The notes beneath the pieces are model-generated. The model did no database searches, was not told where the DNA came from, and saw only the letters and a list, made by a program, of their open reading frames with translations. From NCBI GenBank assembly GCA_903871935.1, contig CAIQIQ010000062.1:72020-136019 (forward strand): 64,000 nt of DNA, read 5' to 3'. Below are positions 24,541-48,738 of this stretch, in pieces. Source of the stretch: an uncultured Phycisphaerales bacterium. GTDB lineage: Bacteria > Planctomycetota > Phycisphaerae > Tepidisphaerales > Tepidisphaeraceae. Made by a program: the position numbers and the translations under genes. Within the stretch, counting starts at the first letter, position 1; each line of letters begins with the position of its first letter.

Positions 24541-24694
24541 AAACGCTAACCACTTATACCACAACCCCTTACAACGATAACAGTTATTCGCGCGACCTCG
24601 GCTATCTTCCTTCCCTTCGTGCCTCCGCGCCCCAGTGCCTTCGTGCCTGCCATTTCCGAATTGCACCAACTGCCGTTGCGGGTAGGGTAAGTAC

Positions 24695-25663
24695 ATGGCC
24701 AAGGCATTGGAGGAGAAACTGGCGCGGGTAGGTACTCTGGATGCTTCGACCGTCGAGGGATGCGAACAGTTGCGCAAGGCCTTGGGGGACAAATCGAATC
24801 TCGTGGTGGCGAAGGTCGCGAAGCGCATTCTGCGAGAGAAGATTGCGGAACTCGCGGGAGAGTTGCCGGGCGTGTTCATGCGGCTGATGGCCGGGGGAAC
24901 GGCGGCCGATAAGGGATGCATGGCGAAGCTGGAGATTGCTCAGGCCATCTACCAACTCGGCGCGGCCATGGACGGAGCGGAGGAGGCGCTGGTTGCGGGG
25001 GTACATCATGTGCAAATGGGGCCGACCTTCGGCGGGATGGTCGACACTGCTCCAGAGTTGCGAGGCGTGTGCGCCTTGGGGCTGGTGCGGATGGGGTATC
25101 GGGATGTGATGATGGAGTTGGCGGACCTGCTGGCGGACAAGGAGCCGCAGGCGCGAATCATGGCCGCCCGGGCGATTGCGTATGCGGGCGTGGAAAGCGG
25201 AGCACTGCTGCTGCGACTCAAAGTGCTCAGCGGCGATCCGGATACGACGGTGATGGCGGAGTGCTTTACCGCGCTGGTGCAGCTTACGCCGGCGAAGGCG
25301 CTGCCGCTGCTGGAGCGGTTCCTGGATCGTGGCGACACAGATCTGGCCCAAGAGGCGGCAATTGCGATTGCCTCATCCAGGCGCGAGGAGGCGCTGGGAA
25401 TCCTGTGCCGCCACTGGGAGAAGGATATCACGCGACGAGAATCGCTTTTGGTCCCACTGGCGATCCTGCGCCGGCCAGAGGCAGTGGAGATGCTGCTGAG
25501 CGTGATCGAGAGTGGACCCGAAGCACTGGCGCTAGCCGCCACCGACGCAATGGGAATGTACCGGTCAGATGCCACGGTGGCTCAACGCGTGCTGGCATCG
25601 GCAAAGAGCCGCGGACCCGCCGTGCAGCGGGCAGCAGTCAAGGCGTTGGGGGATTCCGATTGA
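24695..25663 (+). CDS. HEAT-repeat (PBS-lyase-like) protein
   Basis: Repeated alpha-helical units with motifs such as AARAIAYAG, ECFTALVQL and AAVKALGDS. Length is 322 aa. Confidence 0.7.
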   Translation: MAKALEEKLARVGTLDASTVEGCEQLRKALGDKSNLVVAKVAKRILREKIAELAGELPGVFMRLMAGGTAADKGCMAKLEIAQAIYQLGAAMDGAEEALVAGVHHVQMGPTFGGMVDTAPELRGVCALGLVRMGYRDVMMELADLLADKEPQARIMAARAIAYAGVESGALLLRLKVLSGDPDTTVMAECFTALVQLTPAKALPLLERFLDRGDTDLAQEAAIAIASSRREEALGILCRHWEKDITRRESLLVPLAILRRPEAVEMLLSVIESGPEALALAATDAMGMYRSDATVAQRVLASAKSRGPAVQRAAVKALGDSD

Positions 25664-25685
25664 AACCTGGTCCGGTGAGACCGCG

Positions 25686-27059
25686 TTACAGCTCGTATTC
25701 CTTGATCTTCCGGTAGAGCGTGCGTTCGCCGATGCCGAGAATCTTGGCCGCATGTTCGCGGTTGCCTTCGACCATCTTCAGCGTGTTGCGGATCAGTTCC
25801 TTTTCGGCCTGCTCGATGGAGATGCCGACCAGGTTGTTCATTCCGCCAAGAGAGTCGGCGGCGGCTTTAGGCCGAATGTCGGCGGGCAGAGCCTCCACGC
25901 CCAATCGCTTTTCTGAGGAGAGCACCACCATGTTCTCGATCACGTTCTTAAGCTGGCGGACATTGCCCGGCCAGTTAAAGCTCATCAGCGTCTGGTGGGC
26001 CTCGGGTGTAACTCCCTCCAGTTGCTTGCCATACTTCTCGGCCGCCTGGGTGAGGAAGTAGTGGATCAGCACCGGAATGTCTTCGCGGCGCTCCCGCAGC
26101 GGCGGGATCTGGATGGTCGCGCCTTTGATGCGGAAGTAGAGATCCTCCCGGAACTGTCGTTCGGAGACCATCTCTTCGATTTGGCGATTTGTCGCACTGA
26201 TAAAGCGGACGTTCACTCTGATCGGATCGTTGGCGCCCAGGCGGACAACTTCGCCGTTCTCCAGGACACGCAGCAGCTTGGCCTGCATCGCCGCCGGCAT
26301 GTCGCCGATTTCATCGAGGAACAGCGTGCCGGTGTCGGCGTGCTCAAACCGGCCGGCCCGGTCGCCCTGGGCACCGGTAAATGCGCCTCTGACGTGGCCA
26401 AACAGCTCATCTTCAAGGATGGATTCGGACAGCCCGGCGCAGTTCAGGTTCACCATGCGGTTCTTCCGCCGACGCGAGTGGCTGTGGATGGCCCGGGCGA
26501 TGAGTTCTTTGCCGGTCCCGCTTTCGCCCAGGATCAGGATCGGAATATCGCTCATGGCAACCTGCCGTGCCATCTGCACGACGCTGCGCATCGAGGCCGA
26601 GGCGCCGATGATTCCTTCAAATCCGACCTGTTGTTCGATCTGCTCCTGGAGGAACTGGTTCTGTTTCTGCAGAACCGATTTCTCGGCAGCGCGGCCAACC
26701 TGGGCACGAAAATAGTCCAGGTCCAGCGGCTTCTCGATGTAGTCGTAGGCGCCTTCGGAGAGGGCCGTCCGGCAGGTGGGAACGTCGGCATGGGCAGTCA
26801 CCAGGATAACCGGCGGAGCGGGGCTCATTTTCGTTGCCGCACGCAGCACATCCAGGCCTTCGGGTTTGCCTTCCATCATCAGGTCGGTAACGATCACATC
26901 GAAACTGCGTTTGGCCAGGCGTTCATCCGCCTCGGCCTGGTTGTACGCCACCTCACAGCGATGCCCCATGCGCTGCAACGCCTCGCACATTACCTGTGCG
27001 TGGTCCTGCTCATCGTCCACGATGAGGATGGTAGACCGGTTCACCTCATTCTGCGCCAT
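25686..27059 (-). CDS. Sigma54-dependent response regulator (NtrC family: REC + AAA+ + Fis HTH)
   Basis: The receiver domain is ILIVDDEQDHAQV...DVIVTDLMMEG. The AAA+ core has GESGTGKE, GAFTGA and ESELFGH. A C-terminal HTH is present. No cognate histidine kinase is adjacent. Confidence 0.9.
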   Translation of the reverse strand: MAQNEVNRSTILIVDDEQDHAQVMCEALQRMGHRCEVAYNQAEADERLAKRSFDVIVTDLMMEGKPEGLDVLRAATKMSPAPPVILVTAHADVPTCRTALSEGAYDYIEKPLDLDYFRAQVGRAAEKSVLQKQNQFLQEQIEQQVGFEGIIGASASMRSVVQMARQVAMSDIPILILGESGTGKELIARAIHSHSRRRKNRMVNLNCAGLSESILEDELFGHVRGAFTGAQGDRAGRFEHADTGTLFLDEIGDMPAAMQAKLLRVLENGEVVRLGANDPIRVNVRFISATNRQIEEMVSERQFREDLYFRIKGATIQIPPLRERREDIPVLIHYFLTQAAEKYGKQLEGVTPEAHQTLMSFNWPGNVRQLKNVIENMVVLSSEKRLGVEALPADIRPKAAADSLGGMNNLVGISIEQAEKELIRNTLKMVEGNREHAAKILGIGERTLYRKIKEYEL

Positions 27060-27114
27060 GGCGGAAGTGGTAACACAGAATGATGCTAACGTAAATACGC
27101 GGCGTTGGTCTCCT

Positions 27115-28296
27115 CTACCCGAATCCGCCGGTTCGCGTGCCGAGGTTGTCCAGCACATTCATGTAGTTGATGTAACTGTCGTAGGGGCTCTCATAGGGTG
27201 AGAAGTATTTGTGCACATCGCCGTCGGCGAAGTACTTCGTGCTCATGTAGTAGAAGTGGTCGCTGGTGGTCAGGCAGCGCCAGTCGGAGAGAAGCTGCGG
27301 ATCGCCGGAACTCTTCACCGCCTTCTCCAGGCTGAAGAGCCCCCGCATCGCGTGGTCCTGCATAGCATTGCCGGTCCAGGCCGACAGATCGCGTTCGGTG
27401 TCGGCCCAGGATACGGGCTCGGGCACATCATAGGTGTCGCTGGCGCTGCAGTGGGCCAGAAGATCGGAGGGGGTGGCGAAGTCGTTCCGACCGGTCTCGA
27501 GCACACGGATGGGCAGGTATCGCATGAACTCAAAGATGCCGGTCTGGGCCCACTGGTGTTCACCAAGAGTTTCAAGGTCGATGAACAGATTGCAGACACT
27601 GCCGTTGCCGTTGATCTGATCCACCCAGTGGGCGAACTTGTCTGCAGTCAGTGGCCATTGTTCCCAGGCCCGGTTCGAGAAGCGGAAGGCAATGTCATCG
27701 CTCAGGCGGAAGTTCTTCAGAAGTAGCTTGAAGTCTGGCATGCCCGGCGGATGGTATAGCACATTGGGCGTACGAGTACCCAGAAGGTGATCGGCGCCCT
27801 CGGCCAAAGCGCCGGCCAATCCTGCGTGCTGTGCGAACTGGCCCAATGCGTTGGAGTAGACAAGTTCAGTATTGCGAAACACACGCGGCTGATAGCCAAA
27901 CAGGGCATGGATGGTATCGCGGTGCATCTGGACCTGTTGAGCAAACTCATCCCAGGAATGCAGAAACGCCAGCGAGTGGTAATACGTCTCCGCCAGCAGT
28001 TCAACGCAGCCAGTGGCGACCAGTTTCTTCAAGGCCTCAATGACCTCGGGCGAATAGCGTTGAAACTGCTCAATCGCACAGCCGGTAATGGAGAACGACA
28101 CGCGGAAGCGGCCGTTGTGCTCACGAATCAAGTCGTGGAGCAGGTGGGTGGCCGGAAGGTAACATCGGTCGGCGACCTTGCGGCAGATCGTGCGATTAGC
28201 ATGGTCATCGAAGTAGTCCCAGAGGGTATCAAACACGCTATACCGCCGCAGCCGCAGCGGTTGGTGCATTTGAAAATAAAAACATACCGATGCCAT
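27115..28296 (-). CDS. Glycoside hydrolase family 57 protein
   Basis: The N-terminus MASVCFYFQMHQPLRL carries the GH57 HQP signature. Start is taken at the ATG at 28296, preceded by a GGGGA RBS; the ORF extends to a GTG at 28332. It is co-oriented with the sigma54 response regulator, 55 nt away. Confidence 0.8.
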   Translation of the reverse strand: MASVCFYFQMHQPLRLRRYSVFDTLWDYFDDHANRTICRKVADRCYLPATHLLHDLIREHNGRFRVSFSITGCAIEQFQRYSPEVIEALKKLVATGCVELLAETYYHSLAFLHSWDEFAQQVQMHRDTIHALFGYQPRVFRNTELVYSNALGQFAQHAGLAGALAEGADHLLGTRTPNVLYHPPGMPDFKLLLKNFRLSDDIAFRFSNRAWEQWPLTADKFAHWVDQINGNGSVCNLFIDLETLGEHQWAQTGIFEFMRYLPIRVLETGRNDFATPSDLLAHCSASDTYDVPEPVSWADTERDLSAWTGNAMQDHAMRGLFSLEKAVKSSGDPQLLSDWRCLTTSDHFYYMSTKYFADGDVHKYFSPYESPYDSYINYMNVLDNLGTRTGGFG

Positions 28297-28409
28297 GTCC
28301 CCGTACCAATCTTCTGTAGGATTGTAAGGCACAACATGTAACCGTCCATGGCTAAACGAGATAGAATTCCCATTGCCCCTTTGCTGGGTTATAATTCAGT
28401 ATTCAGGCC

Positions 28410-28757
28410 ATGCAGATGCCACCGATCGAGAATCTTCGCATCGCTTTTGCGCAATCCATCATTGCCACAATGGCAACGCAGGTCAGCAGCTACATGCGCC
28501 TAGTCGCTCACCCGGACGTCCAGTTTGCCGACCTGCTGGACGCGTTGGAGCGCAATGCCGTGATTGGCGACGACGCGGCCCAGCGTCTGCACCGGCGACT
28601 GGCCGTGCCCGTCGGCACGAGCTCCCTCATGGTGCAGCGCGGCTACTGGGAGCAGGTGCTTGCAGAACGCAGCATTCCGCTTACCGCGCCATTCCGGACC
28701 CAGCCCGAGGCTGCCGCGCCGGCCGCCGCCCCCGAGGCAGAGTTGAAGGCGTCCTGA
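28410..28757 (+). CDS. Small hypothetical protein (115 aa)
   Basis: The ORF ends 11 nt before the mannitol-dehydrogenase-family gene start and has an Ala/Pro-rich C-terminus. Calling it coding rests only on ORF length and position. Confidence 0.35.
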   Translation: MQMPPIENLRIAFAQSIIATMATQVSSYMRLVAHPDVQFADLLDALERNAVIGDDAAQRLHRRLAVPVGTSSLMVQRGYWEQVLAERSIPLTAPFRTQPEAAAPAAAPEAELKAS

Positions 28758-28768
28758 GCATCACCAAC

Positions 28769-29989
28769 ATGCCTGATCAACGCTGTTTCGCTGGGTTTGG
28801 GTTTGGTCCGATACAGTCGGGCTTGTTCCTCTATGAAGCATTCCGCACCGGACGGTTTTCCCGCCTGGTGGTCGCTGAAGTCGATGACCGGATCGTGGAG
28901 TTACTCCGCGCCAGCGGCGGAGAATATCATCTGAACATCGCCCATGCCCAAGGCATCGAGAAGGCGACCATACGCGGTATCGAGGTCTATAACCCTCACA
29001 GAGCCGAGGATCGGCAGAAGCTGCTGGCGGCGATTGCAGGGGCCGATGAGCTATCCACCGCTCTGCCAAGCGTCAGCTTCTTCGCCTCGGGTGGTGAGGC
29101 GTCGGTGGTTTCCGTATTGGCTGATGCACTGAAGAGTGCACCTGAAAAGCACCGCATTCTCTATGCCGCGGAAAACCACAACCACGCGGCGGAAATCCTG
29201 GCGGACCACCTTACCCAACGGCTTGGGCGCAACGCTCTCGATGGTTTCCAGATCGTCAACACGGTGATCGGCAAGATGAGCGGCGTGATCACCGACCCGG
29301 CGCAGATCCGGGAACTGCAGTTGGCAACGCTGACCCCCGCAGCCGATCGTGCGGTGTTGGTTGAGGCGTTCAACCGGATACTGATTGGCCGAATCCAGCC
29401 GGGCATCGTGCGTGGAATCGACGCCTTCATTGAAAAGGATGATCTTTTGCCGTTCGAGGAGGCAAAGCTGTATGGGCACAACGCGGTTCATGCACTGATC
29501 GGTTACCTGGCGCATCAGCGCGGATTGGCGCTGATGTCGCAGGTTGCGGCCCACCTGGAGATTCTGGCTGTTGCTCGTCGGGCGTTTATGGAGGAGTCCG
29601 GTGCTGCCTTGGTGCAGAAGTATGCCCATTTGAACGATCCATTCTTCACGGCCGAAGGATATGGTGCCTATGCCGAGGATCTGCTGCAACGGATGGTGAA
29701 CCCGAATCTGCAGGATCTGGTGGCGCGGGTTATTCGTGACCCGCAGCGGAAGCTGTCGTGGAATGACCGCCTGCTCGGGACGATGCGCCTGGCGCTGCAG
29801 TACGGCATCCGGCCCGTGAACATGGCGCAAGGGGTGGCCGCGGCCCTGGCATTCGCTCTGGGCCGAACGCCAGAGTCGAAGGCAGAGGTAGGGAACGCGC
29901 TGCAGGCGATCTGGGGCGAGACAGCGCAGGAGCCCACGGCGAGCGAACTGGTGGACCTGACGTGGGACGCCGTGCGACACTGCACTTGA
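28769..29989 (+). CDS. Mannitol dehydrogenase family oxidoreductase (UxuB/UxaB/MtlD-like)
   Basis: The N-terminus MPDQRCFAGFGFGPIQSGLF resembles the FGAGNIGRGF dinucleotide motif of mannitol, mannonate and altronate dehydrogenases. The C-terminal domain is helical. Start is taken at the internal ATG at 28769 of ORF 28373..29989. Confidence 0.7.
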   Translation: MPDQRCFAGFGFGPIQSGLFLYEAFRTGRFSRLVVAEVDDRIVELLRASGGEYHLNIAHAQGIEKATIRGIEVYNPHRAEDRQKLLAAIAGADELSTALPSVSFFASGGEASVVSVLADALKSAPEKHRILYAAENHNHAAEILADHLTQRLGRNALDGFQIVNTVIGKMSGVITDPAQIRELQLATLTPAADRAVLVEAFNRILIGRIQPGIVRGIDAFIEKDDLLPFEEAKLYGHNAVHALIGYLAHQRGLALMSQVAAHLEILAVARRAFMEESGAALVQKYAHLNDPFFTAEGYGAYAEDLLQRMVNPNLQDLVARVIRDPQRKLSWNDRLLGTMRLALQYGIRPVNMAQGVAAALAFALGRTPESKAEVGNALQAIWGETAQEPTASELVDLTWDAVRHCT

Positions 29990-30006
29990 GCACGGTCGGG
30001 ATTACA

Positions 30007-31164
30007 ATGGGCTCAATGGCAAAGGTGAACAGGCCCGTCGAGGTGGTTGTTGCAGGTCATATCTGTCTGGATGTGATTCCAGAGTTCCCTCCACATGCTT
30101 TGGCCGGCGCGATCAGCCCGGGTGCGCTGGTGAAGGTGGGACCGGCGCTGCGCTCAACCGGCGGCGCAGTCGCCAACACGGGGCTGGCGCTGCACCGGCT
30201 TGGCATTGGCGTGCGCCTGGTGGGCAAGGTGGGGCATGACCTGTTTGGAGAAGAGATCATCAACATCTTGCGCTCACATTCCCCCGATTTGGCAGCAGGG
30301 ATGATCGTGTCCGATCGTGATACGTCGAGCTACACCGTGGTGATATCGCCGCCAGGGACCGATCGCACGTTTCTCCATTGTCCCGGCGCCAATGACACGC
30401 TGAGCAGCCGGGATGTGCCAGATAGCGCCCTTGCCGGGGCGCGGCTGCTGCACTTTGGATACCCGCCACTGATGCGGCGGATGTACCTAAAGAACGGCGA
30501 TGAACTGCGGAGGCTGATGAAGCGGGCCAGAACAATGGGGCTGACGACCAGCCTCGACATGGCTGAGCCGGATGCGGCGTCGGAGGCAGGGAAGGTGGAT
30601 TGGGTGGCACTGCTTAAGAATGTGCTGGGCGAGGTAGACATCTTCGCTCCGAGCATCCAGGAAGTGCTTTTTATGGCCGACCGGAAGACGTACGCGAAAC
30701 TGACCAGAAAGACCGGAGCCATCGAGGTCAAACGTGATGTGACGCGAGGCCTTCTGCAGTCGCTGTCGGGCAACCTGCTGGAATGGGGGGCGGCCGTGGT
30801 GATGATCAAGCTGGGAGAGCAGGGGGCGTATTTGCGCACCAGCAGTAACAGGGCCCGCCTGTTTGGGATGGGGGCCTGCACTCCACGAGACGTGTCGCCA
30901 TGGATCGGGTGCGAGTTGAGGGCACCGTGCTTTAAGGCCAAGGTGGTCGGGACCACCGGCGCGGGTGATTGCGCTATTGCGGGTTTTTTGGCTGGCGTGC
31001 TCAAGGGCCTGACTCCTGAGGGCTGCCTGCGATTCGCGGTGGCTGTCGGCGCCTGCAGCGTTGAGGCGCCTGATGCGACCAGCGGCGTGCCGAACTGGAA
31101 CAGGGTAAGACAGCGTATACGCGATGGTTGGCCGACGTTGCCATCTTGCATCGACGTGGCATAG
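30007..31164 (+). CDS. PfkB-family carbohydrate kinase (ribokinase/KdgK-like)
   Basis: The N-terminal sheet VVVAGHICLDV, the TGGAVANTG motif and the C-terminal GAGDCAIAGF anion hole with catalytic Asp are all present. Confidence 0.8.
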   Translation: MGSMAKVNRPVEVVVAGHICLDVIPEFPPHALAGAISPGALVKVGPALRSTGGAVANTGLALHRLGIGVRLVGKVGHDLFGEEIINILRSHSPDLAAGMIVSDRDTSSYTVVISPPGTDRTFLHCPGANDTLSSRDVPDSALAGARLLHFGYPPLMRRMYLKNGDELRRLMKRARTMGLTTSLDMAEPDAASEAGKVDWVALLKNVLGEVDIFAPSIQEVLFMADRKTYAKLTRKTGAIEVKRDVTRGLLQSLSGNLLEWGAAVVMIKLGEQGAYLRTSSNRARLFGMGACTPRDVSPWIGCELRAPCFKAKVVGTTGAGDCAIAGFLAGVLKGLTPEGCLRFAVAVGACSVEAPDATSGVPNWNRVRQRIRDGWPTLPSCIDVA

Positions 31165-31201
31165 AGCGGTGTCCATGCGTTCCAGTCGCTCGCGATCTTC
31201 A

Positions 31202-32005
31202 CTACACGTACTGCATCCGTAAGACCTTTAGCGCGGTGCCACCGAGGATCTTCCGCTTCTCGTCATCGTTGATATTTGCGTAGAGTAAGGAACCCAGGGC
31301 GTGCAGAGCGGAAAACCAACCCAGGGCATCGGAACCAAAGAGGAGCTTTTCGCCTCCCAGTTCTTTGACGAAGTATTCGAGCACTCCGTTGTGAATGCTG
31401 GCGTCGGTCAGTTCCAGGTAGATGTTGGGATGCCTTTGGGCTAAGCGAACGGCACCCGCGAAATCCGGCTCGAAGCAGTGGGCGCAGCAGATTGGCACCG
31501 ATGGGTATTCCGCGGCGATCTTGTCATAGATGGCGACTCCGCTCAGCGGGGAATCCCAGGTATGGCTGATGATGGGTAAGCCATGGTCGGCCGCAAAGCG
31601 GAAGACAGGCTTGTAGTTGGCGCCATCGGCCGGGTAACCATTGCCATCAGGGTGAATCTTGATGCCTTTCCAGCTCAATTCCGATGCGTAATGCTCGAGC
31701 TCCTGCTGCGTTTCTTCCGGGTATCGGGCACTGGGAAGAACAAACGGAATGAAGCGTTTGGGGCTGTGGGCGGCGAATTCTTTGACCACCTGGTTGCCCA
31801 GAACGTGATCGGAACCCATACCCGCGTTCGAGAACAGCACCGAATAGCCAATGCCGGCCGAGTCCATGACCTTGAGCATCGAAGCCGGGGAGAGATCGGG
31901 CGTGTAGAAATTGCGCCAGGGACCGACGTGGCCGTGCATATCGACCACCGGACAGTTCAAGGGCTGTCCCTTTTTCGCCATTTCCAGCAGAGAAGGTTCG
32001 CTCAT
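31202..32005 (-). CDS. Amidohydrolase_2 (TIM-barrel metal-dependent hydrolase) family protein
   Basis: The VVDMHGH metal-binding start, HTWDSP and a conserved Asp near the C-terminus are present. The start overlaps the upstream amidohydrolase stop as ATGA. Confidence 0.75.
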   Translation of the reverse strand: MSEPSLLEMAKKGQPLNCPVVDMHGHVGPWRNFYTPDLSPASMLKVMDSAGIGYSVLFSNAGMGSDHVLGNQVVKEFAAHSPKRFIPFVLPSARYPEETQQELEHYASELSWKGIKIHPDGNGYPADGANYKPVFRFAADHGLPIISHTWDSPLSGVAIYDKIAAEYPSVPICCAHCFEPDFAGAVRLAQRHPNIYLELTDASIHNGVLEYFVKELGGEKLLFGSDALGWFSALHALGSLLYANINDDEKRKILGGTALKVLRMQYV

Positions 32006-32757
32006 TTGGTCCTCACTTGGTCCAGGAGCTGCTGTAGATTGCGGCTGGCGATATTGGCTCGATCGGCGTCCGAAATCGAAGCATAGTTGAGCATTCCCAG
32101 CGAGGCGCCCGGTGTCAACATCGGCCAGCCGGACCCCCACAATAACCGCTGACTGCCGAACTTGGCGCAGATATCTTCCAGGCAAAGATGAGTGCGCAAG
32201 AGGGAAGTCTCCAGTCGCAGCTTCGGGAACTCGGTCATCAGAGGATAGGTAAAGCGGGCGCGATCCCAGGTCGAGATATCGGTTAGAACCAGATTGAGGT
32301 CGTTATATTTGCCGAGTAGGTGGTATACCTCGCTCCAATCGGTTTCACGCAGGCTCAAGAAGACTGGAACCTTGTGTCTTGCCAGAACCTTGAACATGTC
32401 CTGGCAGCCGAATTCCAGCGGATAGCCGTGCATCTTCGGATACAGGGCGACAGCGCGAATACCGCCGGCAACCAGATTCTGCAGAAGCTGATCGATCGGC
32501 GGCAGGTGCATGGTGGCTGAAGGCCCGATGACCGCGAGGCCCTGCAGGACGGGATACGGCTGAATCTCCTTCGTTAGCAGTTCGATACCGGTGGCGGGGT
32601 CGTACTCGCTCGCCGCGGCGAGCCGGACCAGCGCCCGGTCGATGCCACAGCGAGCCATGGTCTGCACCAGATCGTCGGTCTTCCACGGTTCGTAGAACGG
32701 GCGCTGGTTGCGGCGGCCGATCTGACAGTTTGCATCAAAGAGCATTTCCACCTCCAC
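32002..32757 (-). CDS. Amidohydrolase_2-like TIM-barrel hydrolase (second paralog)
   Basis: A 251-aa protein with a similar fold signature (LFDANCQIG ... LLWGSGWP). It is translationally coupled to 31202..32005. Confidence 0.65.
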   Translation of the reverse strand: MEVEMLFDANCQIGRRNQRPFYEPWKTDDLVQTMARCGIDRALVRLAAASEYDPATGIELLTKEIQPYPVLQGLAVIGPSATMHLPPIDQLLQNLVAGGIRAVALYPKMHGYPLEFGCQDMFKVLARHKVPVFLSLRETDWSEVYHLLGKYNDLNLVLTDISTWDRARFTYPLMTEFPKLRLETSLLRTHLCLEDICAKFGSQRLLWGSGWPMLTPGASLGMLNYASISDADRANIASRNLQQLLDQVRTK

Positions 32758-32769
32758 CGTTGGCGACCG

Positions 32770-33774
32770 TTACACCGCTTCGGAGCCCATGGCGACGACG
32801 ATTCGCTCGGCGACTTCGACGGCGGCCATGCCATCTTCGCCGCTGACCGTCGGCCGGGTGCCGTTGCGGACCGCACCAATAAAATCCTCCTGCTCCGCCA
32901 GGAGTTGATCGGTGTTTTCCACGGGCACGGCTTCGAGTTTGACCATATCAGAGAAGCTGAGCTTGGTGGGATCGGCGATTTCGCCGGATTTCACTTTGGC
33001 GAAGGTCTCGCGCAGGTGCTCCAGGTTCTGGCCGCGGCGGGCGATGACGCCCTGTTTCTTTGCATAGTCGATGGCGATCCAGGCGTCGCCGGTGGCGAGG
33101 CGCATGCGGCGGTCGGTCTTTAGCGCCAGGCGCGATCCGGTCATGGTTGCCACGCAGCCGTTCTCAAAGATCAGGCGGGCATTGCAAACATCTTCGCTCT
33201 GGCCGATCACTTTGACGCCGACGGCCTCCACGCTCTTGAGTTTTGACTTCGCCAGCGAGAGCACCACATCGATGTCGTGGACCATCATGTCGAGCACGAC
33301 GCCGACATCGAGGCTGCGGAAGGTCAGCGGACTGACGCGAATGGTTTCGATGAATCGCGGCTTAAGGTTCATCTTCGCCAGGGCGCGGACGGCCGGGTTG
33401 AACCGCTCAACATGGCCCACTGCCAGTGTTACGCCCGCCTTCCTGGCCCATTCGACGATCTGCCGGCATTCCTGGCTGTTGCGCGCCAGCGGCTTCTCGA
33501 TCATGCAGGCAACTCCGGCCTTAAAGCAGGTCTCGGCCATGGCGGCGTGGGCCTCGGTGGTGGTGGCAATGGTCACCGCCTTGACCTCGCGCACCATCTC
33601 ATCAAGGGAGGCGAACGCCTTACAGCGATACTGCTGGGCGACGGCCGCCGCCGCGGCCGGGATGGCATCATAGACGCCGGCGAACTTCACGCCGGCCATC
33701 TGCCCATAGACGCGCGCGTGGTATTTGCCCATGCGGCCGCAACCGATCACACCGACAGGAATGGCTTCGCTCAT
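32770..33774 (-). CDS. Gfo/Idh/MocA family NAD(P)-dependent oxidoreductase
   Basis: The N-terminal Rossmann segment is MSEAIPVGVIGCGRMGKYHARVY. An EKP motif and a C-terminal alpha/beta domain follow. Confidence 0.85.
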   Translation of the reverse strand: MSEAIPVGVIGCGRMGKYHARVYGQMAGVKFAGVYDAIPAAAAAVAQQYRCKAFASLDEMVREVKAVTIATTTEAHAAMAETCFKAGVACMIEKPLARNSQECRQIVEWARKAGVTLAVGHVERFNPAVRALAKMNLKPRFIETIRVSPLTFRSLDVGVVLDMMVHDIDVVLSLAKSKLKSVEAVGVKVIGQSEDVCNARLIFENGCVATMTGSRLALKTDRRMRLATGDAWIAIDYAKKQGVIARRGQNLEHLRETFAKVKSGEIADPTKLSFSDMVKLEAVPVENTDQLLAEQEDFIGAVRNGTRPTVSGEDGMAAVEVAERIVVAMGSEAV

Positions 33775-33879
33775 AGTGCGGGAATGATAGTGGAAACAAA
33801 CCAGAGGCGGCAATGGATGGGTGATCGTCATTGATTCCCGGCCGCGCCGGGATTTCGCTTCGCTCAACATTGGTCAATA

Positions 33880-34930
33880 GTCATTGGTCGGGATGGTCAG
33901 GGCGCATGGGTTGACGGTAGTGCGTATCACTATTCCGTAACGGTAGAGGATGTGGAAATAGGGTAGCAGCGACGAAGCGACGGAGCGACGAGGGGGGGAA
34001 CCGGAGCAGAACAGTAGAGGCGAAGCGTTCCATGGGTGTTCCACGCGCAGGTTGTGGATAAGTAGGAGGTGCGCAAGTTCTCGGCGGGGGTACAACCATG
34101 GTGCTATCTTTCGTGGCTGCAGGCAGTTATGGCAAAACAGAGGGAGGAGATGATCAAGTTCGGTGCGCTTGTGGATGATTCCCGGCAGAAGAGCGGAACT
34201 CGAAAAGCGGAAAGCGAGAATGAAGGCAAAGAGGGCGAGGAGGCGCGTATATCTTCTTGCTTTGTAAGATGTTGTGAGATAAGTGGTTAGCGCTTTGATG
34301 GGGAAGGAGGTGCGCACGTTTCTTTCTGGTCATTGGTCACTTGTCCTGAAGTCATTGGCCGGAGAAGACAAAGGTGCTCAGGTTCGCGCGCGCAATCTGC
34401 GATGATCAGTAATCCGCATTACCGATGAGGACAAAGGGGCTCAAGATCGAGTGCGCATCTTGGGGCGGCATTGCCTACTTGTCCGGTCGGAGTTCTGGGT
34501 ATTCACTTGTGAAAGAACGGCGGCCGGGGTGCAAGCCAAAGACAGCCTAGAGGCTGCACTCCGAACGCAGAACGCGAGGTCCTTCTATATATAAGGGTGG
34601 ATTTGGAGGGGTCGACTTGAGGGAGATGAGTATTGACAGAGACTTACGTGCATCCAGAAATCTTTCCACATTTTGGAGCAGCAGGAAGACGTAATGCAGA
34701 AGTCAGAAGACAGAAGTCAGAAGCAGAGGGAGGAGTGGGCGATTGGCCGCTGTTGAGGCAGAGATCGGGCACGCTTTGAACACGGATATCGCCATATTCA
34801 ACCTGTAGATCTGCTGGAACCTTTGCGGAAGTGTAGAGCGTTGGGTTGATCGCTGCATCCCGCTCGCCTGGCGAGGGAAACGGCCCATCCCCCACATACG
34901 GCGCTCTACACCGCTCCTGACAGACCTGCT
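33880..34930. repeat. About 1 kb noncoding tract of internally repeated SD-plus-start-like units, paralogous to 63.1-64.0 kb
   Basis: Contains no plausible long ORF. At least five copies of the [purine-rich GGAGG/GGGAAG/ACAAAG] + (A/G)TGC(G/T)CA(A/G)G(A/T)T(C/A) unit occur, at 34066, 34306, 34371, 34432 and 34449. Blocks align with 63.44-63.93 kb at about 75%. Confidence 0.6.
34295..34440 (+). repeat. 145-bp dispersed repeat, direct copy (partner at 24398..24540 inverted)
   Basis: The two copies are near-identical apart from about 10 substitutions. Confidence 0.7.
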
Positions 34931-34985
34931 ACAAAGACGTCCCATGGCAACCGGAAACGCTTCACCGTCTCGTCGCGCAGGCAAG
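34895..34985 (+). promoter_or_regulatory. Conserved ~70-nt 5' module spanning the start codon of the GDPD gene (paralog at 37383..37465)
   Basis: CTACACCGCTCCTGACAGACCTGCTACAAAGACGTCCCATGGCAACCGGAAACGCTTCACCGTCTCGTCGCG is about 85% identical to 37383..37455. The module includes TA(C/T)AAAG 8 nt before the ATG and the first ~12 codons. Confidence 0.4.
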
Positions 34986-35684
34986 GATACTTGGAGGCCG
35001 GTCATCATTGCTCATCGTGGTGGTGCGGCGGGGTTTGGTCTGGCAGAGAACTCCCGCGAGGCGTTTGCTGCCGCTTCGGCCGCGGGGTTTGGCAGCGAAT
35101 GCGATGCCTGGGCATCGGCGGATGGGGAACCTGTGGTCATGCACGATCAGGAGTTGGCTCGCACAACGCTCGTAACAGGTCGGGTTACGGACATGATTTC
35201 ATCGGCGCTGCTGCAGGTGCATCTCAGGTCGGCAGGCACGCCCGCGATGGTTCCACTTCTGCGCGACGTGGCATGCGATGTCACGCTGGTCGAGATCAAG
35301 CAGAATAACGCGCGGGATCTGGTTGGCCGGGTGATTCAGGTCATGGAGGGAAGGGAATGGCGTTTACAGTCATTTGACCGTGCGAACCTGGTCTATGCTC
35401 GCGAGTTGGCGCCGTCGGTTCCGGTTGCTTTGCTGATGAGTGACCTTGCCGGTGCAACGGCCGCCATCGCCGGGGGCTGGCCGGCTTACATGGATCACGG
35501 TTTGTTGGATGAGGCGGTTGTGGCTCGTCTGCGGAATGGTGGGCTGGCCGTGGGCGCATGGACAGTCAATAGCGAGCAGGCTTTGCGCCGGATCGCGCCA
35601 TTCCGGCCGGACGTAATCATTAGCGATGTGCCGCAACTGATCCGCGACTGGCTGGCCGATGAACTGCCGGGCGGTAGATGGTGA
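34944..35684 (+). CDS. Glycerophosphodiester phosphodiesterase family protein
   Basis: The VIIAHRGG motif, E..ENS and the HD.ELARTT region are typical of the GDPD fold. Confidence 0.8.
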   Translation: MATGNASPSRRAGKDTWRPVIIAHRGGAAGFGLAENSREAFAAASAAGFGSECDAWASADGEPVVMHDQELARTTLVTGRVTDMISSALLQVHLRSAGTPAMVPLLRDVACDVTLVEIKQNNARDLVGRVIQVMEGREWRLQSFDRANLVYARELAPSVPVALLMSDLAGATAAIAGGWPAYMDHGLLDEAVVARLRNGGLAVGAWTVNSEQALRRIAPFRPDVIISDVPQLIRDWLADELPGGRW

Positions 35685-35759
35685 CGGCTGTAATGGCACA
35701 GAGCCGCGCGGAGCACACGATCTGGATTTGGTGTAGAATCCGCTTCTTGAAGGCGGCAT

Positions 35760-37040
35760 ATGGGTCAGTCAATTACGCAAACGAGTCTCAGGCCGGCAGG
35801 AACGAGGCGGAAAGGCCTGGTGGGATTCGGGCTGGTCTTTGCTGCGATGGGCGGGCTGTTTCTTGTGATGATATTCGGGCCGATGGCGCTCGGCCTGATT
35901 CGCTCGCGGCACTGGGTTTCAACGCCATGCGTTATCGTCAACAGCAATGTGGAGGAGTCGCACGACTCCGAGAACGGCAGCACATATCGCGTTGCCGTCC
36001 GTTATCGGTATCAGGTGGATGACCGGCAGTACGTGGGAGATCGATACAATTGGACGGTCGGCTATTCCTCGGGCTATTCATCCAAACAGCGGGTTGTCGC
36101 CGCTCTGCCGCCGGAGGCGGATGCCACGTGCTTTGTGAATCCGGCGAATCCAGCGGAATCCGTGCTCAATCGGGACGTTGGCTGGGAAGCCGCCTTTATC
36201 CTGTTGCCCCTGGCGTTCATTGCGTTTGGCATCGTGAGCATCTATGCCGGCATCCGTTCGTATTCTCCTGCGATCTCCGATGCGGTCTCGCCTGGCGGAG
36301 AATGGTTGCGACGAAAAGTCCTTTCCGGCGGGCAGGCGGCCAACGGATTCGCGGGCGTCTGGCCGGCGCCCGCAAAGGACCGCGGACCGCGGGAACTGCG
36401 GTCCTCGACCGATCCGCGCACGCAGTTGACAGGTTTGGCCTTCGCCGCGGCAATTTGGAACGGTATCGTCGGAAGCATCCTCTATTTCGGAGGCGTCTGG
36501 TCGCATTTCAGCGATGTCTTCGACATTGTCGGCGCGGTATTCATGATCCCCTTTGTTTTGATCGGGCTGGGCCTCATTATTGGAACGATCTACTCGCTCC
36601 TGGCATTGCGAAATCCACGTCCCGTGGTGACGATTGCCAAGTCGATCCTGCGGTTGGGCGACTCGGTAGAGGTTCGATGGAGAGTCGAGGGACGCACGGA
36701 CACTATCTCCATGCTGAATCTGACGATGGAGGGCCGGGAAGTGGCCACTTATCACAGCGGGACAGACAGCGATGGGAGGGCGAACACGTCTACCGACAAG
36801 CATGTATTTGAGCGAGTCAGCATCGCACATGTCAGCGACCAGATGGAGATTGCCAATGGCCGGTCCGTGCTGCATCTGCCGGAGCGTTCGATGCCAAGCT
36901 TCATCTCGGCCAACAATCGCGTGGAGTGGGTGCTGGTCGTTCACGGAGATATTCCAAATTGGCCGGATGTGAAAGAGGAATTCACACTGGACGTTTTCGG
37001 GCCAGAGGCCAAGGGGGCGAGCGATGCGGATGGCCATTGA
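35760..37040 (+). CDS. DUF3592-like membrane protein with extended C-terminal domain
   Basis: The N-terminal half has TM1, a beta-rich insert (WVSTPCVIVNS...YRVAVRYRYQVDDRQYVGDRY) and TM2, the architecture of DUF3592. Two further TM helices and a soluble domain follow. Confidence 0.6.
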   Translation: MGQSITQTSLRPAGTRRKGLVGFGLVFAAMGGLFLVMIFGPMALGLIRSRHWVSTPCVIVNSNVEESHDSENGSTYRVAVRYRYQVDDRQYVGDRYNWTVGYSSGYSSKQRVVAALPPEADATCFVNPANPAESVLNRDVGWEAAFILLPLAFIAFGIVSIYAGIRSYSPAISDAVSPGGEWLRRKVLSGGQAANGFAGVWPAPAKDRGPRELRSSTDPRTQLTGLAFAAAIWNGIVGSILYFGGVWSHFSDVFDIVGAVFMIPFVLIGLGLIIGTIYSLLALRNPRPVVTIAKSILRLGDSVEVRWRVEGRTDTISMLNLTMEGREVATYHSGTDSDGRANTSTDKHVFERVSIAHVSDQMEIANGRSVLHLPERSMPSFISANNRVEWVLVVHGDIPNWPDVKEEFTLDVFGPEAKGASDADGH

Positions 37041-37401
37041 ACTGTCCGAGGGAAAGCTGAGTTATCGGCCGCGGCAATTGATGCGCGGCTCGTTTTCGTG
37101 GTCTTCACTGGATCAACTCAAGAGCCTGGAACTGCGGCTATTCTGGTACACGCAGGGAAAGGGAACGCAGGATGTGACGCTTGTTGAAATGCGTCGCATC
37201 AACTCACCGGCGTTGATGGGGCGAGAGCGATTTGAATTTCGCGTACCGGACGGTCCGTACACAATGCATGGGAAACTGATCTCGGTGCTGTGGGCATTGG
37301 AGTTGGTGAGCGAAGGTCCGAACGAGGTCACACGAGTGGACGTGGTCGTATCGCCGTGGGGAGAGCCGGTAATCCTGCGGGAAGAACTACACCGCTTCTG
37401 A
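37024..37401 (+). CDS. Hypothetical protein (125 aa) overlapping the 3' end of 35760..37040
   Basis: The ORF overlaps the upstream gene by 17 nt, in a different frame, and its stop is embedded in the conserved 70-nt module. I recognise no family. Confidence 0.35.
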   Translation: MRMAIELSEGKLSYRPRQLMRGSFSWSSLDQLKSLELRLFWYTQGKGTQDVTLVEMRRINSPALMGRERFEFRVPDGPYTMHGKLISVLWALELVSEGPNEVTRVDVVVSPWGEPVILREELHRF

Positions 37402-37465
37402 GAGACCTGCTATAAAGACGCCCCATGGCCAGCGAAAACACTACCTCGTCTCGTCGCGTTCCCTT
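37383..37465 (+). promoter_or_regulatory. Second copy of the conserved ~70-nt 5' module, spanning the start codon of the oxidoreductase gene
   Basis: CTACACCGCTTCTGAGAGACCTGCTATAAAGACGCCCCATGGCCAGCGAAAACACTACCTCGTCTCGTCGCG. Compare with 34895..34985. Confidence 0.4.
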
Positions 37466-38588
37466 CGCCATTATCGGTGTGGGAGGCATCGCACAATCGC
37501 AGCATCTTCCCAACCTGCTGCGCGTGCCGCAGATCGACCTGCAGGTCGCCTGCGATATGCAAGCTGATCGCCTGCGCCAGGTTGCTGACAAGTACTCGAT
37601 TCCGCGGCGCGTCGGCGATGCCCGTGAGGTCTTTGCCGACCCGACGATTGAGGGCGTGATCGTTGCGACGCGCGACGATTTCCAGGCGCCTCTGACGATC
37701 GCCGCATTGAACGCGGGCAAGCATGTCTATGTGGAAAAGCCCCTGGCCACCACGCCCGAACAGTGCGAAAAGGTTGTGGATGCACAGCGACGATCCGGCA
37801 AGCACGTGGCCGTAGGGTTCAACCGCCGCTTTGCCCCGGCTTACCTACAGGCCCGGGAGGTCGTCACTGGCAATGGCGGAGCCCACAACATCCATTACCG
37901 CATCGCCGATTCCTATTGCCGGACCTGGGGCGCTGGTAGCCCACCGGGGCAGCGCATTCTGCACGAGGTCTGCCACATCTTTGACATCCTGCGCTGGTTC
38001 ACCGGCTCGGAAGTCGATTGGATCCACTGCCTGCGCGGCCGGCACGATGATGAGATCTGCCTGCTTCGCTTCGCCTCCGGCTGCATCGCTTCGATCACCA
38101 GTTCCGGCTATGCCACGGTGGATATGCCCAAGGAAGCGCTGGAGATCATCAGCGATTACGGCGGCATTAGCGTGATCGACTTTGTCGAACTGCGCACGTT
38201 CGGCCAGCGCGCCTATCAGAGCGTCTACAGTTATCCCGGCCACATCCACCCCGATCATGAGTACATCTACCGGCATATGTACGCGCAACTCGGTGCTCCA
38301 GCGCTCTATGCACTGCGGCGCACCGCATGGGAGATCAGGGAAGGCCTGGCGCCGGCCGAGCCGGCCGATCGCGCGGTCTTTGAGAAACACCACCGCTCGC
38401 ATATGCCTGACTCCAACTACACGGGAGACAAAGGCTGGGTCCAGGCGATGGCGCACTTTGCCAAGAGTGTCGCCGCCGGCACCAAACCCTTGAACGCGAG
38501 CCCAGCCGACGCCCTGGCGGCCGCCCAGCTCGGGCAGGCGGCCATTACCAGCCGGGAGACGAATCAGGTTGTCTCTATCCACCCATAG
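37425..38588 (+). CDS. Gfo/Idh/MocA family oxidoreductase
   Basis: The N-terminal Rossmann segment is VPFAIIGVGGIAQSQHLPNL. An EKP motif and a C-terminal domain are present. Length is 387 aa. Confidence 0.85.
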   Translation: MASENTTSSRRVPFAIIGVGGIAQSQHLPNLLRVPQIDLQVACDMQADRLRQVADKYSIPRRVGDAREVFADPTIEGVIVATRDDFQAPLTIAALNAGKHVYVEKPLATTPEQCEKVVDAQRRSGKHVAVGFNRRFAPAYLQAREVVTGNGGAHNIHYRIADSYCRTWGAGSPPGQRILHEVCHIFDILRWFTGSEVDWIHCLRGRHDDEICLLRFASGCIASITSSGYATVDMPKEALEIISDYGGISVIDFVELRTFGQRAYQSVYSYPGHIHPDHEYIYRHMYAQLGAPALYALRRTAWEIREGLAPAEPADRAVFEKHHRSHMPDSNYTGDKGWVQAMAHFAKSVAAGTKPLNASPADALAAAQLGQAAITSRETNQVVSIHP

Positions 38589-38898
38589 GAGGCACCATGC
38601 CAACGAGGCGCAGAACATGCCATGCCGCCAGAGTGGACCTTCACAAGTCTGCCAACATGCGTCGGCCGGGCCACCCCCACCCCTGCCCCTCCCCCAAGGG
38701 GGAGGGAACGGTCTGGGTGAGTACCGATGAACTGGCATCGCAGCAGGAACGGGGCGATGCTCGCTCGCTGCTGAATGCTAGCTATCGTCGCCACCCCGAA
38801 CCGGCCGGTCATACCGAATTGGCTCCATCGCCTCTGAACCGCAAGGCGTTTGCACGGCATGTCTGTGAGCGCCTTGCACGAAAGGCGGTAACGAATTG

Positions 38899-39675
38899 AT
38901 GAATGTCGTCACGCACAACCGTGAAGCATGGGATCTGCAAGTGGAGAAGGGCAATCCGTGGACGATTCCCGTCTCCGCCGATGCCATCTCGCGCGCCCGT
39001 GCGGGGGATTGGCAGATCATCCTGACGCCCAACATCCCGGTTCCGCGAAGCTGGTATCCGCCGATCGTCGGTTGCCGCACGCTATGCCTTGCTTCGGGCG
39101 GCGGACAACAGGGACCAATCCTGGCGGCCGCCGGTGCTGTTGTTACTGTCTTCGACAACTCCCCTGCCCAGCTCGAACGTGACCGCCAGCTCTCCGATCA
39201 GCACCACCTCGGCATCACTGCAGTTCAGGGTGATATGGCCGACTTGGGCGCATTTGCCGATGCCAGCTTTGACCTGATCGTACACCCGGTCTCCAACGTG
39301 TTTGCCCAAGATATCCGTCCCGTATGGCGCGGGGCTGCCCGGGTATTACGCCAAGGCGGGGTCCTGATGGCCGGCTTCAACAATCCCGTTCTCTACCTCT
39401 TCGACACCGCCGCGGCCGAGCGCGGCGAATTGATCGTCTGTCACAAGCTCCCCTACTCCGACCTGCACAGCCTTCCGCCCGAAAAACGCGATGACTTGAT
39501 CAGCCGGAAGGTGCCACTGGAGTTCAGCCATACCCTGGAGGACCAGATCGGCGGCCAATGCGATGCCGGCCTGGCCATCACCGCCATGTTTGAGGATCAC
39601 GACTCGCCCGGTTCCCCCAACGCGTTGGACCGCTATATGCCCCTGTACATCGCCACCCGGGCAGTAAAGCTATAG
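38899..39675 (+). CDS. Class I SAM-dependent methyltransferase
   Basis: SAM-binding motif I is LCLASGGGQQGPILAAAG, with the post-I acidic residue VFDNS and motif II DLIVHP. The ATG at 38899 follows the in-frame TTG at 38896. Confidence 0.8.
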   Translation: MNVVTHNREAWDLQVEKGNPWTIPVSADAISRARAGDWQIILTPNIPVPRSWYPPIVGCRTLCLASGGGQQGPILAAAGAVVTVFDNSPAQLERDRQLSDQHHLGITAVQGDMADLGAFADASFDLIVHPVSNVFAQDIRPVWRGAARVLRQGGVLMAGFNNPVLYLFDTAAAERGELIVCHKLPYSDLHSLPPEKRDDLISRKVPLEFSHTLEDQIGGQCDAGLAITAMFEDHDSPGSPNALDRYMPLYIATRAVKL

Positions 39676-44510: not shown

Positions 44511-45299
44511 TTATGGGTTCAGCTCCGGCCGGCCCAGTTCATCCGGGACGACGCGGAAGCAATCTTCGGATTTGTCATAGTCGACCAGCAGTATACGCTG
44601 GTTCTTCTCAATCACCGGCCGATCCGAACTGACCCGGCACGACACCTGAAACACATCGCCAGCGGTGGTTCGAACCTGTCCCAGGCCGAAACTGGCATCG
44701 ATCTGGCTCAGCGCCACTCCGGCCGATCCGACCAAAGCATCCTTGCGCCTGGCCGGGCTGCCGCCCATGGGCAGGAGTCGTCCGATCAGGCGCGCAATCC
44801 ATCGAGTCAGCAGCGCCGCGATCAGCAACGCAGTCGGCATCGATACCAGTGGGATCACCCACTCGGCGAAGCCGGCTGATGCCATGATGCGGTTCAGGTT
44901 ATAGCCTGCAACACCCCAGAACATCGCGAACAGCATCAGCAAAAGCGAGATTGGCACTCGCCCGGCGCCAAGCCAGAACAAGGTATCCATCATCGCACTG
45001 TTGGAAGGGCCGCCACCTTCGTGGTCGGCGTCATGGTCGTGGTCCGCGCCTGCCGCATCGTGATCCGCGTCGCCGTCTGCATCCACATCCCCGTCCGCGT
45101 CTGCGTCAACATCCGCATCGGCGTCAACATCTGCGTCCGCATCGACATCGGCATCAGCATCCACATCCGCGTCTACGTCTACGTCGACGTGGCCGAACGT
45201 GATCCCCGTCGAGACGTACAGCCCCAAATACAGAAGAGCCAGCCCCATAGGGATGATGAACACCAGGTTCCACCACTGCAGTATCCATGTGAGGTTCAT
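44511..45299 (-). CDS. NfeD/YqiJ-like membrane protein with acidic (DV/DA)n repeat
   Basis: The ORF lies upstream of and adjacent to the flotillin gene, which matches the yqiJK arrangement. It has TM helices, a C-terminal OB-fold-like region ([27 protein letters not shown]) and a 60-aa insert [57 protein letters not shown]. Confidence 0.7.
45020..45200 (-). repeat. In-frame nucleotide tandem repeat (GAC/GCN)n encoding the acidic (DV/DA)n tract
   Basis: A periodic gcgtccgcatcgacatcggcatcagcatccacatccgcgtc block sits on the plus strand within the YqiJ-like CDS. Confidence 0.6.
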
Positions 45300-45432: not shown

Positions 45433-45475
45433 AAAAGGGGTCGGGAGTCTTTTAAAAAGACTCCCGACCCCTTTA
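45433..45475. repeat. Perfect GC-rich palindrome, copy 1 (AAAAGGGGTCGGGAGTC-ttttaaaaa-GACTCCCGACCCCTTTAT)
   Basis: A 13-bp perfect stem, an A/T-only 9-nt loop and A-tract and T-tract flanks. Copy 2 is at 48682..48725. This copy lies between divergently transcribed genes. Confidence 0.7.
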
Positions 45476-45517
45476 TGTCATCTTGACGGCTATCGGGCTC
45501 GGTACGACGATGCGGAC

Positions 45518-48725: not shown

Positions 48726-48738
48726 TTCAATCCACAGC

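Follow-up and report, generated by a model that had tools for sequence, protein, structure and literature searches.

Probable capture by a GDPD-family gene of the 5' end of a neighbouring Gfo/Idh/MocA oxidoreductase gene in an uncultured Phycisphaerales bacterium

Similar upstream regions in front of unrelated genes are common and mostly occur as pairs, and a role in the rewiring of transcription was proposed for such putative mobile promoters, which were delimited as at least 50 nt at >=80% identity within the non-coding upstream region, with pairs showing coding similarity discarded (Matus-Garcia, Nijveen and van Passel 2012; PMC3488235). A gene may also obtain a new promoter by capture through tandem duplication or deletion, shown experimentally with microhomologies of 3-12 bp at the junctions (PMC6614815); rnk-citT in the Escherichia coli long-term evolution experiment, to which that study refers, is the classic example. 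In leaderless genes, described in mycobacteria, Deinococcus-Thermus and others, a -10 box stands directly before the start codon, and Planctomycetes are among the phyla with few Shine-Dalgarno genes and a leaderless or S1-type upstream signal (PMC5397173). Here we compare with these systems a locus of an uncultured Phycisphaerales bacterium, lying in a 64,000-nt stretch of contig CAIQIQ010000062.1 (the window), in which a module of some 70 nt covers the start of a GDPD-family phosphodiesterase gene (copy A) and again that of a Gfo/Idh/MocA oxidoreductase gene (Gfo; copy B). Our findings favour a model where GDPD captured the 5' region of Gfo and the retained core acts as a compact promoter with a leaderless start, which we consider the probable reading of the locus.

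The two copies form a direct repeat on the plus strand (34906-34977 and 37387-37458, offset 2481 nt) in which 61 of 72 bases are identical (85%), in line with the alignment of about 85% between the two gene starts reported in the initial annotation. Each includes the first start codon of its open reading frame (ORF): 38 nt lie before the ATG, with 34 of the 38 identical, and 34 coding bases complete the match. A 34-nt upstream consensus has exactly two matches in the window and none in 100 dinucleotide-preserving shuffles, and the pattern of the promoter part has two matches in the window versus 0.01 expected. An assembly artefact is ruled out by independent assemblies that have the same two-copy layout (JGI contig L001, ENA contig L006, and Logan contig L007); an identical GDPD protein is encoded on a 136-kb JGI metagenome contig and on several ENA and Logan contigs. 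The N-termini, MATGNASPSRRAG in GDPD and MASENTTSSRRVP in Gfo, match their earlier description, and the enzymes behind the shared start do belong to unrelated families (PF03009 versus PF01408). Like the putative mobile promoters, the module is short similar DNA directly before unrelated genes of one genome, occurring as a pair (PMC3488235). Unlike them, it shares 38 nt (up to 50) upstream of the start codon in the window, less than the 50 nt used to define that class; comparison of A and B across genomes extends the homology to -50 (window A) and to -128 (L006 A versus L014 B, at 75%). A further difference is that both coding regions are similar over their first 34 nt, start codon included: the genes are of unrelated families, yet their first 34 coding bases are homologous, and the published pipeline would count this as coding homology. 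Finally, in this case donor and direction of copying can be deduced.

The comparison set comprises six distinct copies from four lineages (window, L006, L014, and L015/L016). L006, a 256-kb ENA contig, carries both copies together with L007, as does the window, with 92% nucleotide identity in Gfo and 99% in RpoB. The window RpoB (15597-19388, minus strand) has about 85% identity with the RpoB proteins of Tepidisphaeraceae MAGs, Humisphaera, and Fontivita, which places the organism among the Phycisphaerae (Planctomycetota). In L014 and in L015/L016 the nucleotide identity of Gfo is 88% and third codon positions are about 71% identical; both have copy B only, and in L014 there is no GDPD gene in the locus. 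Copy B is therefore found in all four lineages of the clade, whose Gfo genes are up to 30% different at third codon positions, and copy A only in the window and L006. The next relatives, L008 for Gfo and L010 for GDPD (73% and 69% protein identity, respectively), have no module: Gfo of L008 starts with (M)PDTPRVPFAIIG behind an AGGAGG box, and GDPD of L010 with MGDWKPTIIAHRGG behind a GGAGGA box. No extension is seen in more than 50 Gfo homologues, with only 3-5 residues ahead of their Rossmann strand, or in about 15 GDPD homologues, which have few residues before the first conserved strand. Such starts, lacking the module and led by Shine-Dalgarno boxes, indicate that the module is a recent addition to both genes in one narrow clade, where it replaced an ordinary Shine-Dalgarno start in each.

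Across genomes, A copies cluster with A and B copies with B, on at least seven diagnostic positions in the six-copy comparison; thus the duplication is older than the split of the window and L006 lineages, and no exchange between A and B has taken place since. Copy A of the window is identical to its L006 orthologue at 64 of 72 bases, and dS (synonymous divergence) of about 0.23-0.33 has accumulated since that split. At codons 2-3 the A copies read GCA ACC, resembling the GCA ACT of B copies from the outlying lineages; in the window and L006, copy B has the derived GCC AGC. The DNA upstream of GDPD in L006 also aligns with that upstream of Gfo in L014 from -128 to +34 (162 nt, 75%, E = 1e-27), so that the copied piece measured at least 162 nt and took in the Gfo upstream region, the ATG, and 11 codons. 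We are highly confident, from these alignments, that both copies go back to one duplication with the Gfo gene as probable donor; single origin and direction of copying we count as established, along with the repeat itself, its block-wise conservation, and the fact that GDPD has no other usable start in the window. The 72 nt seen in the window are the remainder that survived later rearrangements upstream. A remnant of a local duplication was the case named in the initial annotation as refuting its own proposal, and one segmental duplication of at least 162 nt does apply here, but the remnant has been kept under constraint.

In mechanistic terms, a segment of this size from the Gfo gene would have been copied once to a place before GDPD in the recent ancestor of the window and L006, and joined in frame a few bases upstream of the old GDPD start, replacing the Shine-Dalgarno region of GDPD. 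The 3' end of the module is sharp at CGTCGCG in all copies, after which GDPD or Gfo sequence follows. In L010, ACGCG stands directly 5' of the GDPD ATG and the module ends in TCGCG, which makes a 4-nt microhomology (CGCG) at the junction possible, L010 being about 30% diverged and the ancestral sequence correspondingly uncertain; the join may have used this short CGCG match, either at a tandem-duplication junction or by template switch. The old GDPD ATG is apparently Met14 in L006, where the module start reads GTG, and has become AAG in the window, where the module start is ATG. The locus resembles promoter capture (PMC6614815, PMC11111574) in that a gene was placed behind the promoter and 5' end of a same-strand neighbour: the two genes lie on the same strand and close together, with the donor 5' end joined to the recipient, and the possible CGCG junction would fit the short breakpoint microhomologies of those events. 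It differs from the experimental cases in being natural, old, and fixed, and in being an in-frame fusion, the donor start codon plus 11 codons now forming the recipient N-terminus. Also unlike capture by tandem duplication, no remnant of the first duplicated copy lies upstream of the module, which leaves tandem duplication a candidate route.

Identity along the module is distributed in blocks. Averaged over all pairs of the six copies, it amounts to 93% at -38 to -30 (CTWCACSGC), 72% in the spacer at -29 to -21, 88% at -20 to -1 (GACCTGCTAYAAAGACGYCYC), 73% in codons 2-8, where changes are mostly non-synonymous, and 93% at +25 to +34, compared with 70-81% at Gfo third codon positions. A near-neutral rate of drift thus applies to the spacer and to codons 2-8, and the two upstream blocks are constrained. 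The stretch from -38 to +34 has been kept in every copy through repeated rearrangements of the flanks. Between window and L006, GDPD homology begins at 34894 (-50) and Gfo homology at 37386 (-39); across lineages, the upstream limit of homology is -50 for window copy A, -39 for window copy B, and -43 for L006 copy B, and the flanking genes differ. A DUF3592 gene and a 125-aa ORF separate GDPD from Gfo in the window, versus two minus-strand genes in L006, and the genes upstream of GDPD differ between the two as well. Upstream of Gfo, L014 has a HAD hydrolase gene and a 46-nt DUF3592 remnant (L014 5746-5791 versus window 35987-36032, 89% identical); DUF3592 therefore probably occupied this position ancestrally, with a later deletion in L014.

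Within these blocks, TWCACC, 17 nt, and TGnTAYAAA show the layout of an extended -10 promoter (coordinates in table 1), and we predict promoter activity accordingly placed: the retained core would consist of the -35-like CTWCACSGC, a freely varying spacer, and the extended -10-like TGnTAYAAA ending 8 nt before the ATG. The TA(C/T)AAA box at this distance (TACAAA in copy A, TATAAA in copy B) had already been recognised in the initial annotation, and so had the missing Shine-Dalgarno sequence, GGAG, GAGG, AGGA, and AAGG all being absent at -16 to -5 of both ATGs. A consensus promoter scan is silent on the module because the last hexamer base is A (G in L016) and not T, a deficit for which the TGn extension may compensate. 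Other promoter types were considered and set aside: by eye, neither a GG-N10-GC (sigma-54) nor a GGAAC...CGTC arrangement (extracytoplasmic function sigma factors) is conserved across the copies, and CTGACA (-27 to -22), although TTGACA-like as a -35 element, is unconserved and leaves only 7 nt to the -10-like box.

The surroundings of the module in the window bear on how its transcript would begin. TANNNT stands 6-9 nt before the first ATG in 7 of 46 other window genes, versus 0.22 per other spacing (p = 5e-4); this test took the first ATG of each gene, and the version using all ATGs, diluted by internal ones, is marginal (p = 0.045). Instances, none with a Shine-Dalgarno sequence, are TATAAT with 8 nt before 49861, TATGAT with 8 nt before 8020 (minus), TACAAT with 7 nt before 30016, and TAGGGT with 6 nt before 24695. 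Starts with TANNNT at 6-9 nt are 4356(+), 8020(-), 24695(+), 30016(+), 40738(-), 41919(-), 49767(-), 49861(+), and 58886(-). Most of these genes lack a Shine-Dalgarno sequence and other window genes have clear AGGAGG boxes, so the genome mixes both initiation modes, with about one gene in six in the window looking leaderless-type, and the module has leaderless-type geometry. As in leaderless genes (PMC5397173), it combines the lack of a Shine-Dalgarno sequence with a -10-like hexamer 6-9 nt before the ATG; it departs from the other candidate leaderless starts of the window in a hexamer ending in A or G, not T, and in its TGn extension. A leaderless transcript is, on this sequence evidence, the most economical reading: RNA polymerase would start at the A of the ATG, or no more than 1-2 nt from it, yielding a leaderless mRNA with no need for a Shine-Dalgarno sequence. 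The N-terminal tail encoded by codons 2-8 would be nearly neutral, and GDPD and Gfo would be driven by sister promoters and probably co-regulated. Our confidence in this function, a compact promoter with a leaderless start, is moderate. Of the promoter plus initiation cassette postulated in the initial annotation, the compact promoter abutting the start codon is supported by block conservation, by the loss of homology further upstream, and by the -10-like spacing; its portability is not.

Several observations sit awkwardly with promoter capture and a leaderless start. The hexamer TAYAAA (TATAAG in L016) lacks the usual final T, unlike the other leaderless-type starts of the window, and its distance of 8 nt to the ATG is at the long end of the usual spacing. 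The +25 to +34 block (Ser-Arg-Arg, TCNCGTCGCG) is conserved like the promoter blocks, for which a promoter model gives no reason; the rest of the window shows no enrichment of the motif CGTCNCGTCGCG. L006 has GTG at the module start and an ATG 13 codons downstream, which leaves the start used there ambiguous. As for the route of copying, when the L006 DNA upstream of copy A was compared by sensitive blastn with the window and the other loci, neither a second GDPD nor a filler copy came to light, and GDPD and Gfo are not adjacent in the outgroup contigs L010 and L008, whose neighbouring genes are unrelated to those of the window, with no synteny; with neither a first-copy remnant nor outgroup synteny, a tandem-duplication junction is not distinguishable from other routes.

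Some of these features could be accommodated if the same duplication had taken place but -38 to -1 were a 5' untranslated region or operator element, holding a regulator binding site or a Shine-Dalgarno-independent translation enhancer that possibly acts with +25 to +34, while transcription came from lineage-specific upstream promoters or read-through. We regard this as rather unlikely. It would explain why the conserved block at -20 to -1 exceeds the length needed for a -10 element, why the canonical final T is missing, and why +25 to +34 is kept, and read-through is possible in the window, where copy B lies 23 nt behind a co-directional ORF. AGACG (-9 to -5) is moreover complementary to CGTCT (+23 to +27), a pair too short to count as RNA structure. 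Yet L006, L014, and L016 are unrelated or rearranged upstream of about -43 and the upstream genes of L006 are on the other strand, so that every lineage would need its own new promoter. Rfam gives no match in the whole window at the gathering score, nor over 33800-37700 at E <= 5, and both start regions fold less stably than shuffles (z = +0.96 and +0.98). The conserved/variable/conserved layout with 17 nt between hexamers, by contrast, fits a promoter.

The coding part of the module deserves separate consideration. Ser-Arg-Arg is invariant in the six copies, the Ser codon varies only synonymously (TCT/TCC/TCG), and Glu-Asn is nearly invariant; the restriction of the Ser codon to synonymous change hints at constraint on +25 to +34 at the peptide level. 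Selection might thus be keeping the N-terminal peptide MA-x-E-N-x-x-x-S-R-R as a targeting, export, or stability tag, with the DNA similarity a by-product, and many Gfo/Idh/MocA enzymes do carry twin-arginine translocation (Tat) signals. Still, codons 2-8 stand at a roughly neutral 73% with mostly non-synonymous changes, against 88-93% in the non-coding upstream blocks, and homologues of both families lack such an extension. The resemblance to Tat signal peptides ends with Ser-Arg-Arg near the N-terminus of GDPD and Gfo: after it, GDPD continues AGKDTWRP and Gfo with its Rossmann strand VPFAIIGVGG, so that hydrophobic core and cleavage region are missing, and no Tat or other signal model of NCBIfam matches at E <= 1, in keeping with the earlier judgement that the SRR is not a Tat signal. 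A peptide tag as the sole object of selection seems very unlikely to us. We are also doubtful, if somewhat less so, that the module is a self-contained unit of leaderless promoter, operator, and functional N-terminal tag (MA-x-EN-xxx-SRR). If it were, +25 to +34 would be read by a regulator or by the ribosome on a leaderless mRNA, GDPD would have been recruited to the regulon of an inositol-dehydrogenase-like enzyme, for example for the use of glycerophosphoinositol, and a regulon that arose through promoter duplication would be marked by further diverged copies in the genome.

That the module is carried by two unrelated genes, with strain-variable DNA immediately 5' of both copies, and that families of putative mobile promoters are known in many genomes (PMC3488235) would suit a portable multi-copy promoter and initiation cassette moving round the genome to stand before many genes, which is how the portable cassette of the initial annotation can be read. 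We give this little credence. A six-copy nhmmer profile at maximum sensitivity matched the known sites only, no more than two per genome, in the 184 kb searched (window plus related loci), and the window holds only two copies even when 3 mismatches are allowed. A match with 3 mismatches to a pattern of another spacer length (9 N), at 33520-33550 (minus), is inside the coding region of a Gfo paralogue and was treated as chance. Wider searches found no further copy: a 26-mer had no match in GTDB species genomes; the gapped promoter pattern had three there, with unrelated flanks and about the number estimated for chance; a 23-mer had one among JGI metagenome contigs (L005), located at an M48 peptidase gene's 3' end, its flanks unrelated, and judged to be chance, in a scan that did not return the window's own contig, the collection not covering this genome; and IMG/VR had none. 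Terminal repeats are absent, neighbouring ORFs of the window and L006 carry neither a recombinase nor a transposase domain, and A and B trace to one event. The end of a mobile element, a MITE, and an attachment (att) site were each discarded on the same grounds of two copies only, no such domain, and no true match in public collections.

The direct repeats might nonetheless be viewed as att-like recombination sites bounding an exchangeable 2.5-kb gene islet, since they flank a strain-variable segment (DUF3592 plus the 125-aa ORF in the window, two minus-strand genes in L006) and rearrangement breakpoints abut the 5' edge of both copies. This we consider highly improbable: in neither genome was an integrase or recombinase domain found in or near the segment, the variable part begins after the GDPD stop codon and not at copy A, the repeats are only 85% identical with A and B types that stayed distinct and show no sign of exchange, and L014 has copy B without a partner copy in the locus. 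Promoter capture by a single copying event remains the reading we prefer.

The two genes concerned, and those around them, are listed in table 1. In the window, the module ATG is the sole in-frame start of GDPD 5' of the catalytic HRGG motif. Compared with L006, dN/dS (non-synonymous relative to synonymous divergence) is 0.24 for GDPD and 0.07 for Gfo; GDPD is thus under purifying selection and a working gene that relies on the module start codon. Public gene calls give GDPD as a 181-aa protein from Met66 (35139) on 38 contigs (P0001), a form without the conserved catalytic HRGG motif, and the 246-aa form (P0141) is called on 4 contigs by the cluster table and on 6 by the contig look-up. Gene callers place the start at Met66 apparently because a start without a Shine-Dalgarno sequence is not expected by them. 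The Gfo protein is weakly inositol-2-dehydrogenase-like (TIGR04380, E = 3.6e-37, below the family cut-off). The stop codon of an upstream ORF that had been located inside copy B is indeed there (TGA at 37399-37401), and the overlap is seen only in the window lineage; this 125-aa ORF has no Pfam or NCBIfam match. Downstream, in the stretch 38581-38905 between Gfo and a methyltransferase gene, a 100-aa ORF at 38597-38899 has a good AGGAGG box and no family match; it has no counterpart in L006, where the Gfo and methyltransferase genes are 4 nt apart.

Table 1. Module copies, predicted promoter elements, and genes of the locus (window positions)
Feature	Position	Strand	Remarks
Module copy A	34894..34977	+	Before and inside the GDPD gene; core 34906-34977; homology to copy B of relatives from 34894 (-50)
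-35-like hexamer, copy A	34907..34912	+	TACACC (TTCACC in L006); 17 nt upstream of the -10-like hexamer; predicted from sequence
Extended -10-like element, copy A	34927..34935	+	TGcTACAAA; hexamer 34930-34935 ends 8 nt before ATG
Shared GDPD start, codons 2-11, and one further base	34944..34977	+	MATGNASPSRR
GDPD-family phosphodiesterase gene	34944..35684	+	Module recipient; Pfam PF03009, E = 6.7e-23; ATG 34944
DUF3592 membrane-protein gene	35760..37040	+	Between the copies; Pfam PF12158; strain-variable, outside the module
125-aa ORF	37024..37401	+	Overlaps copy B (5' part) with its last 5 codons and TGA
Module copy B	37387..37458	+	Before and inside the Gfo/Idh/MocA gene; probable original copy
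-35-like hexamer, copy B	37388..37393	+	TACACC; predicted from sequence and six-copy conservation
Extended -10-like element, copy B	37408..37416	+	TGcTATAAA; hexamer 37411-37416 ends 8 nt before ATG
Gfo/Idh/MocA oxidoreductase gene	37425..38588	+	Probable module donor; PF01408, E = 9.8e-25; ATG 37425

Further features were recorded in the window outside the module. A block with HEAT-repeat, sigma-54 activator, and GH57 genes is inverted relative to L006 (window 24660-28256 versus L006 1-3621, 89% identity, reversed), and a block at 28257-34591 is specific to the window, with mannitol dehydrogenase, PfkB kinase, two amidohydrolases, and a Gfo paralogue. Inverted repeats of 205 nt (24396-24600 and 34236-34440, 88% complementary), absent from L006, flank the inverted and window-specific blocks, an arrangement that suggests inversion or insertion mediated by these repeats a short way upstream of module copy A. 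An intergenic block of 95 nt (34592-34686 versus L006 3633-3727) is 93.7% identical, where flanking genes are about 89-92%; it adjoins the HEAT-repeat gene in L006, and is separated from that gene by the inversion in the window. Neither of its strands folds stably, and a 7-nt tandem repeat, CAGAAGT, comes after it (34697-34727). A degenerate unit of about 28 nt, GACAAAGGTGCTCAGGTTCGCGCGCGCA, occurs at 34367-34394, 34430-34457, 59435-59462, 63832-63859, and 63895-63922 (plus) and at 24442-24469 (minus), often paired 63 nt apart and without Rfam match, within non-coding G-rich DNA at three places (33.9-34.9 kb, 24.4-24.7 kb, and 63.5-63.9 kb), which share longer similarity (34050-34216 versus 63554-63718). 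The perfect palindrome AAAGGGGTCGGGAGTCTTTT-AAAAGACTCCCGACCCCTTT is present in two 44-nt copies, 98% alike, at gene ends (45433-45476 and 48683-48726); they resemble either bidirectional terminators or a small hairpin element that is repeated. Lastly, an imperfect 12/18-nt tandem repeat at 45039-45194 (GTCNNCATC-type units, eight overlapping copies) lies inside the minus-strand ORF 44511-45299 and probably encodes a short acidic repeat.

Overall, the locus is probably a natural promoter capture and represents no new class of element or mobile cassette. What sets it apart, as far as the compared sequences tell, is the in-frame fusion, a probable switch from Shine-Dalgarno-led to leaderless initiation, and a donor that can be identified. 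To our knowledge, there are almost no promoter data for Phycisphaerae, and the bases kept in six copies from four lineages suggest, as a hypothesis, what the minimal promoter of a leaderless gene may be in this group. For annotation, the Met66 start calls on 38 contigs cost GDPD its catalytic HRGG motif. A functional rationale, which we offer as speculation, is possible: a GDPD frees an alcohol, for instance inositol, from glycerophosphodiesters, and Gfo is weakly inositol-dehydrogenase-like. The case illustrates how one step may give a bacterial gene a new promoter together with a new mode of translation initiation: GDPD, once led by a Shine-Dalgarno sequence, apparently acquired the promoter, start codon, and first 11 codons of its neighbour through a single copy event.

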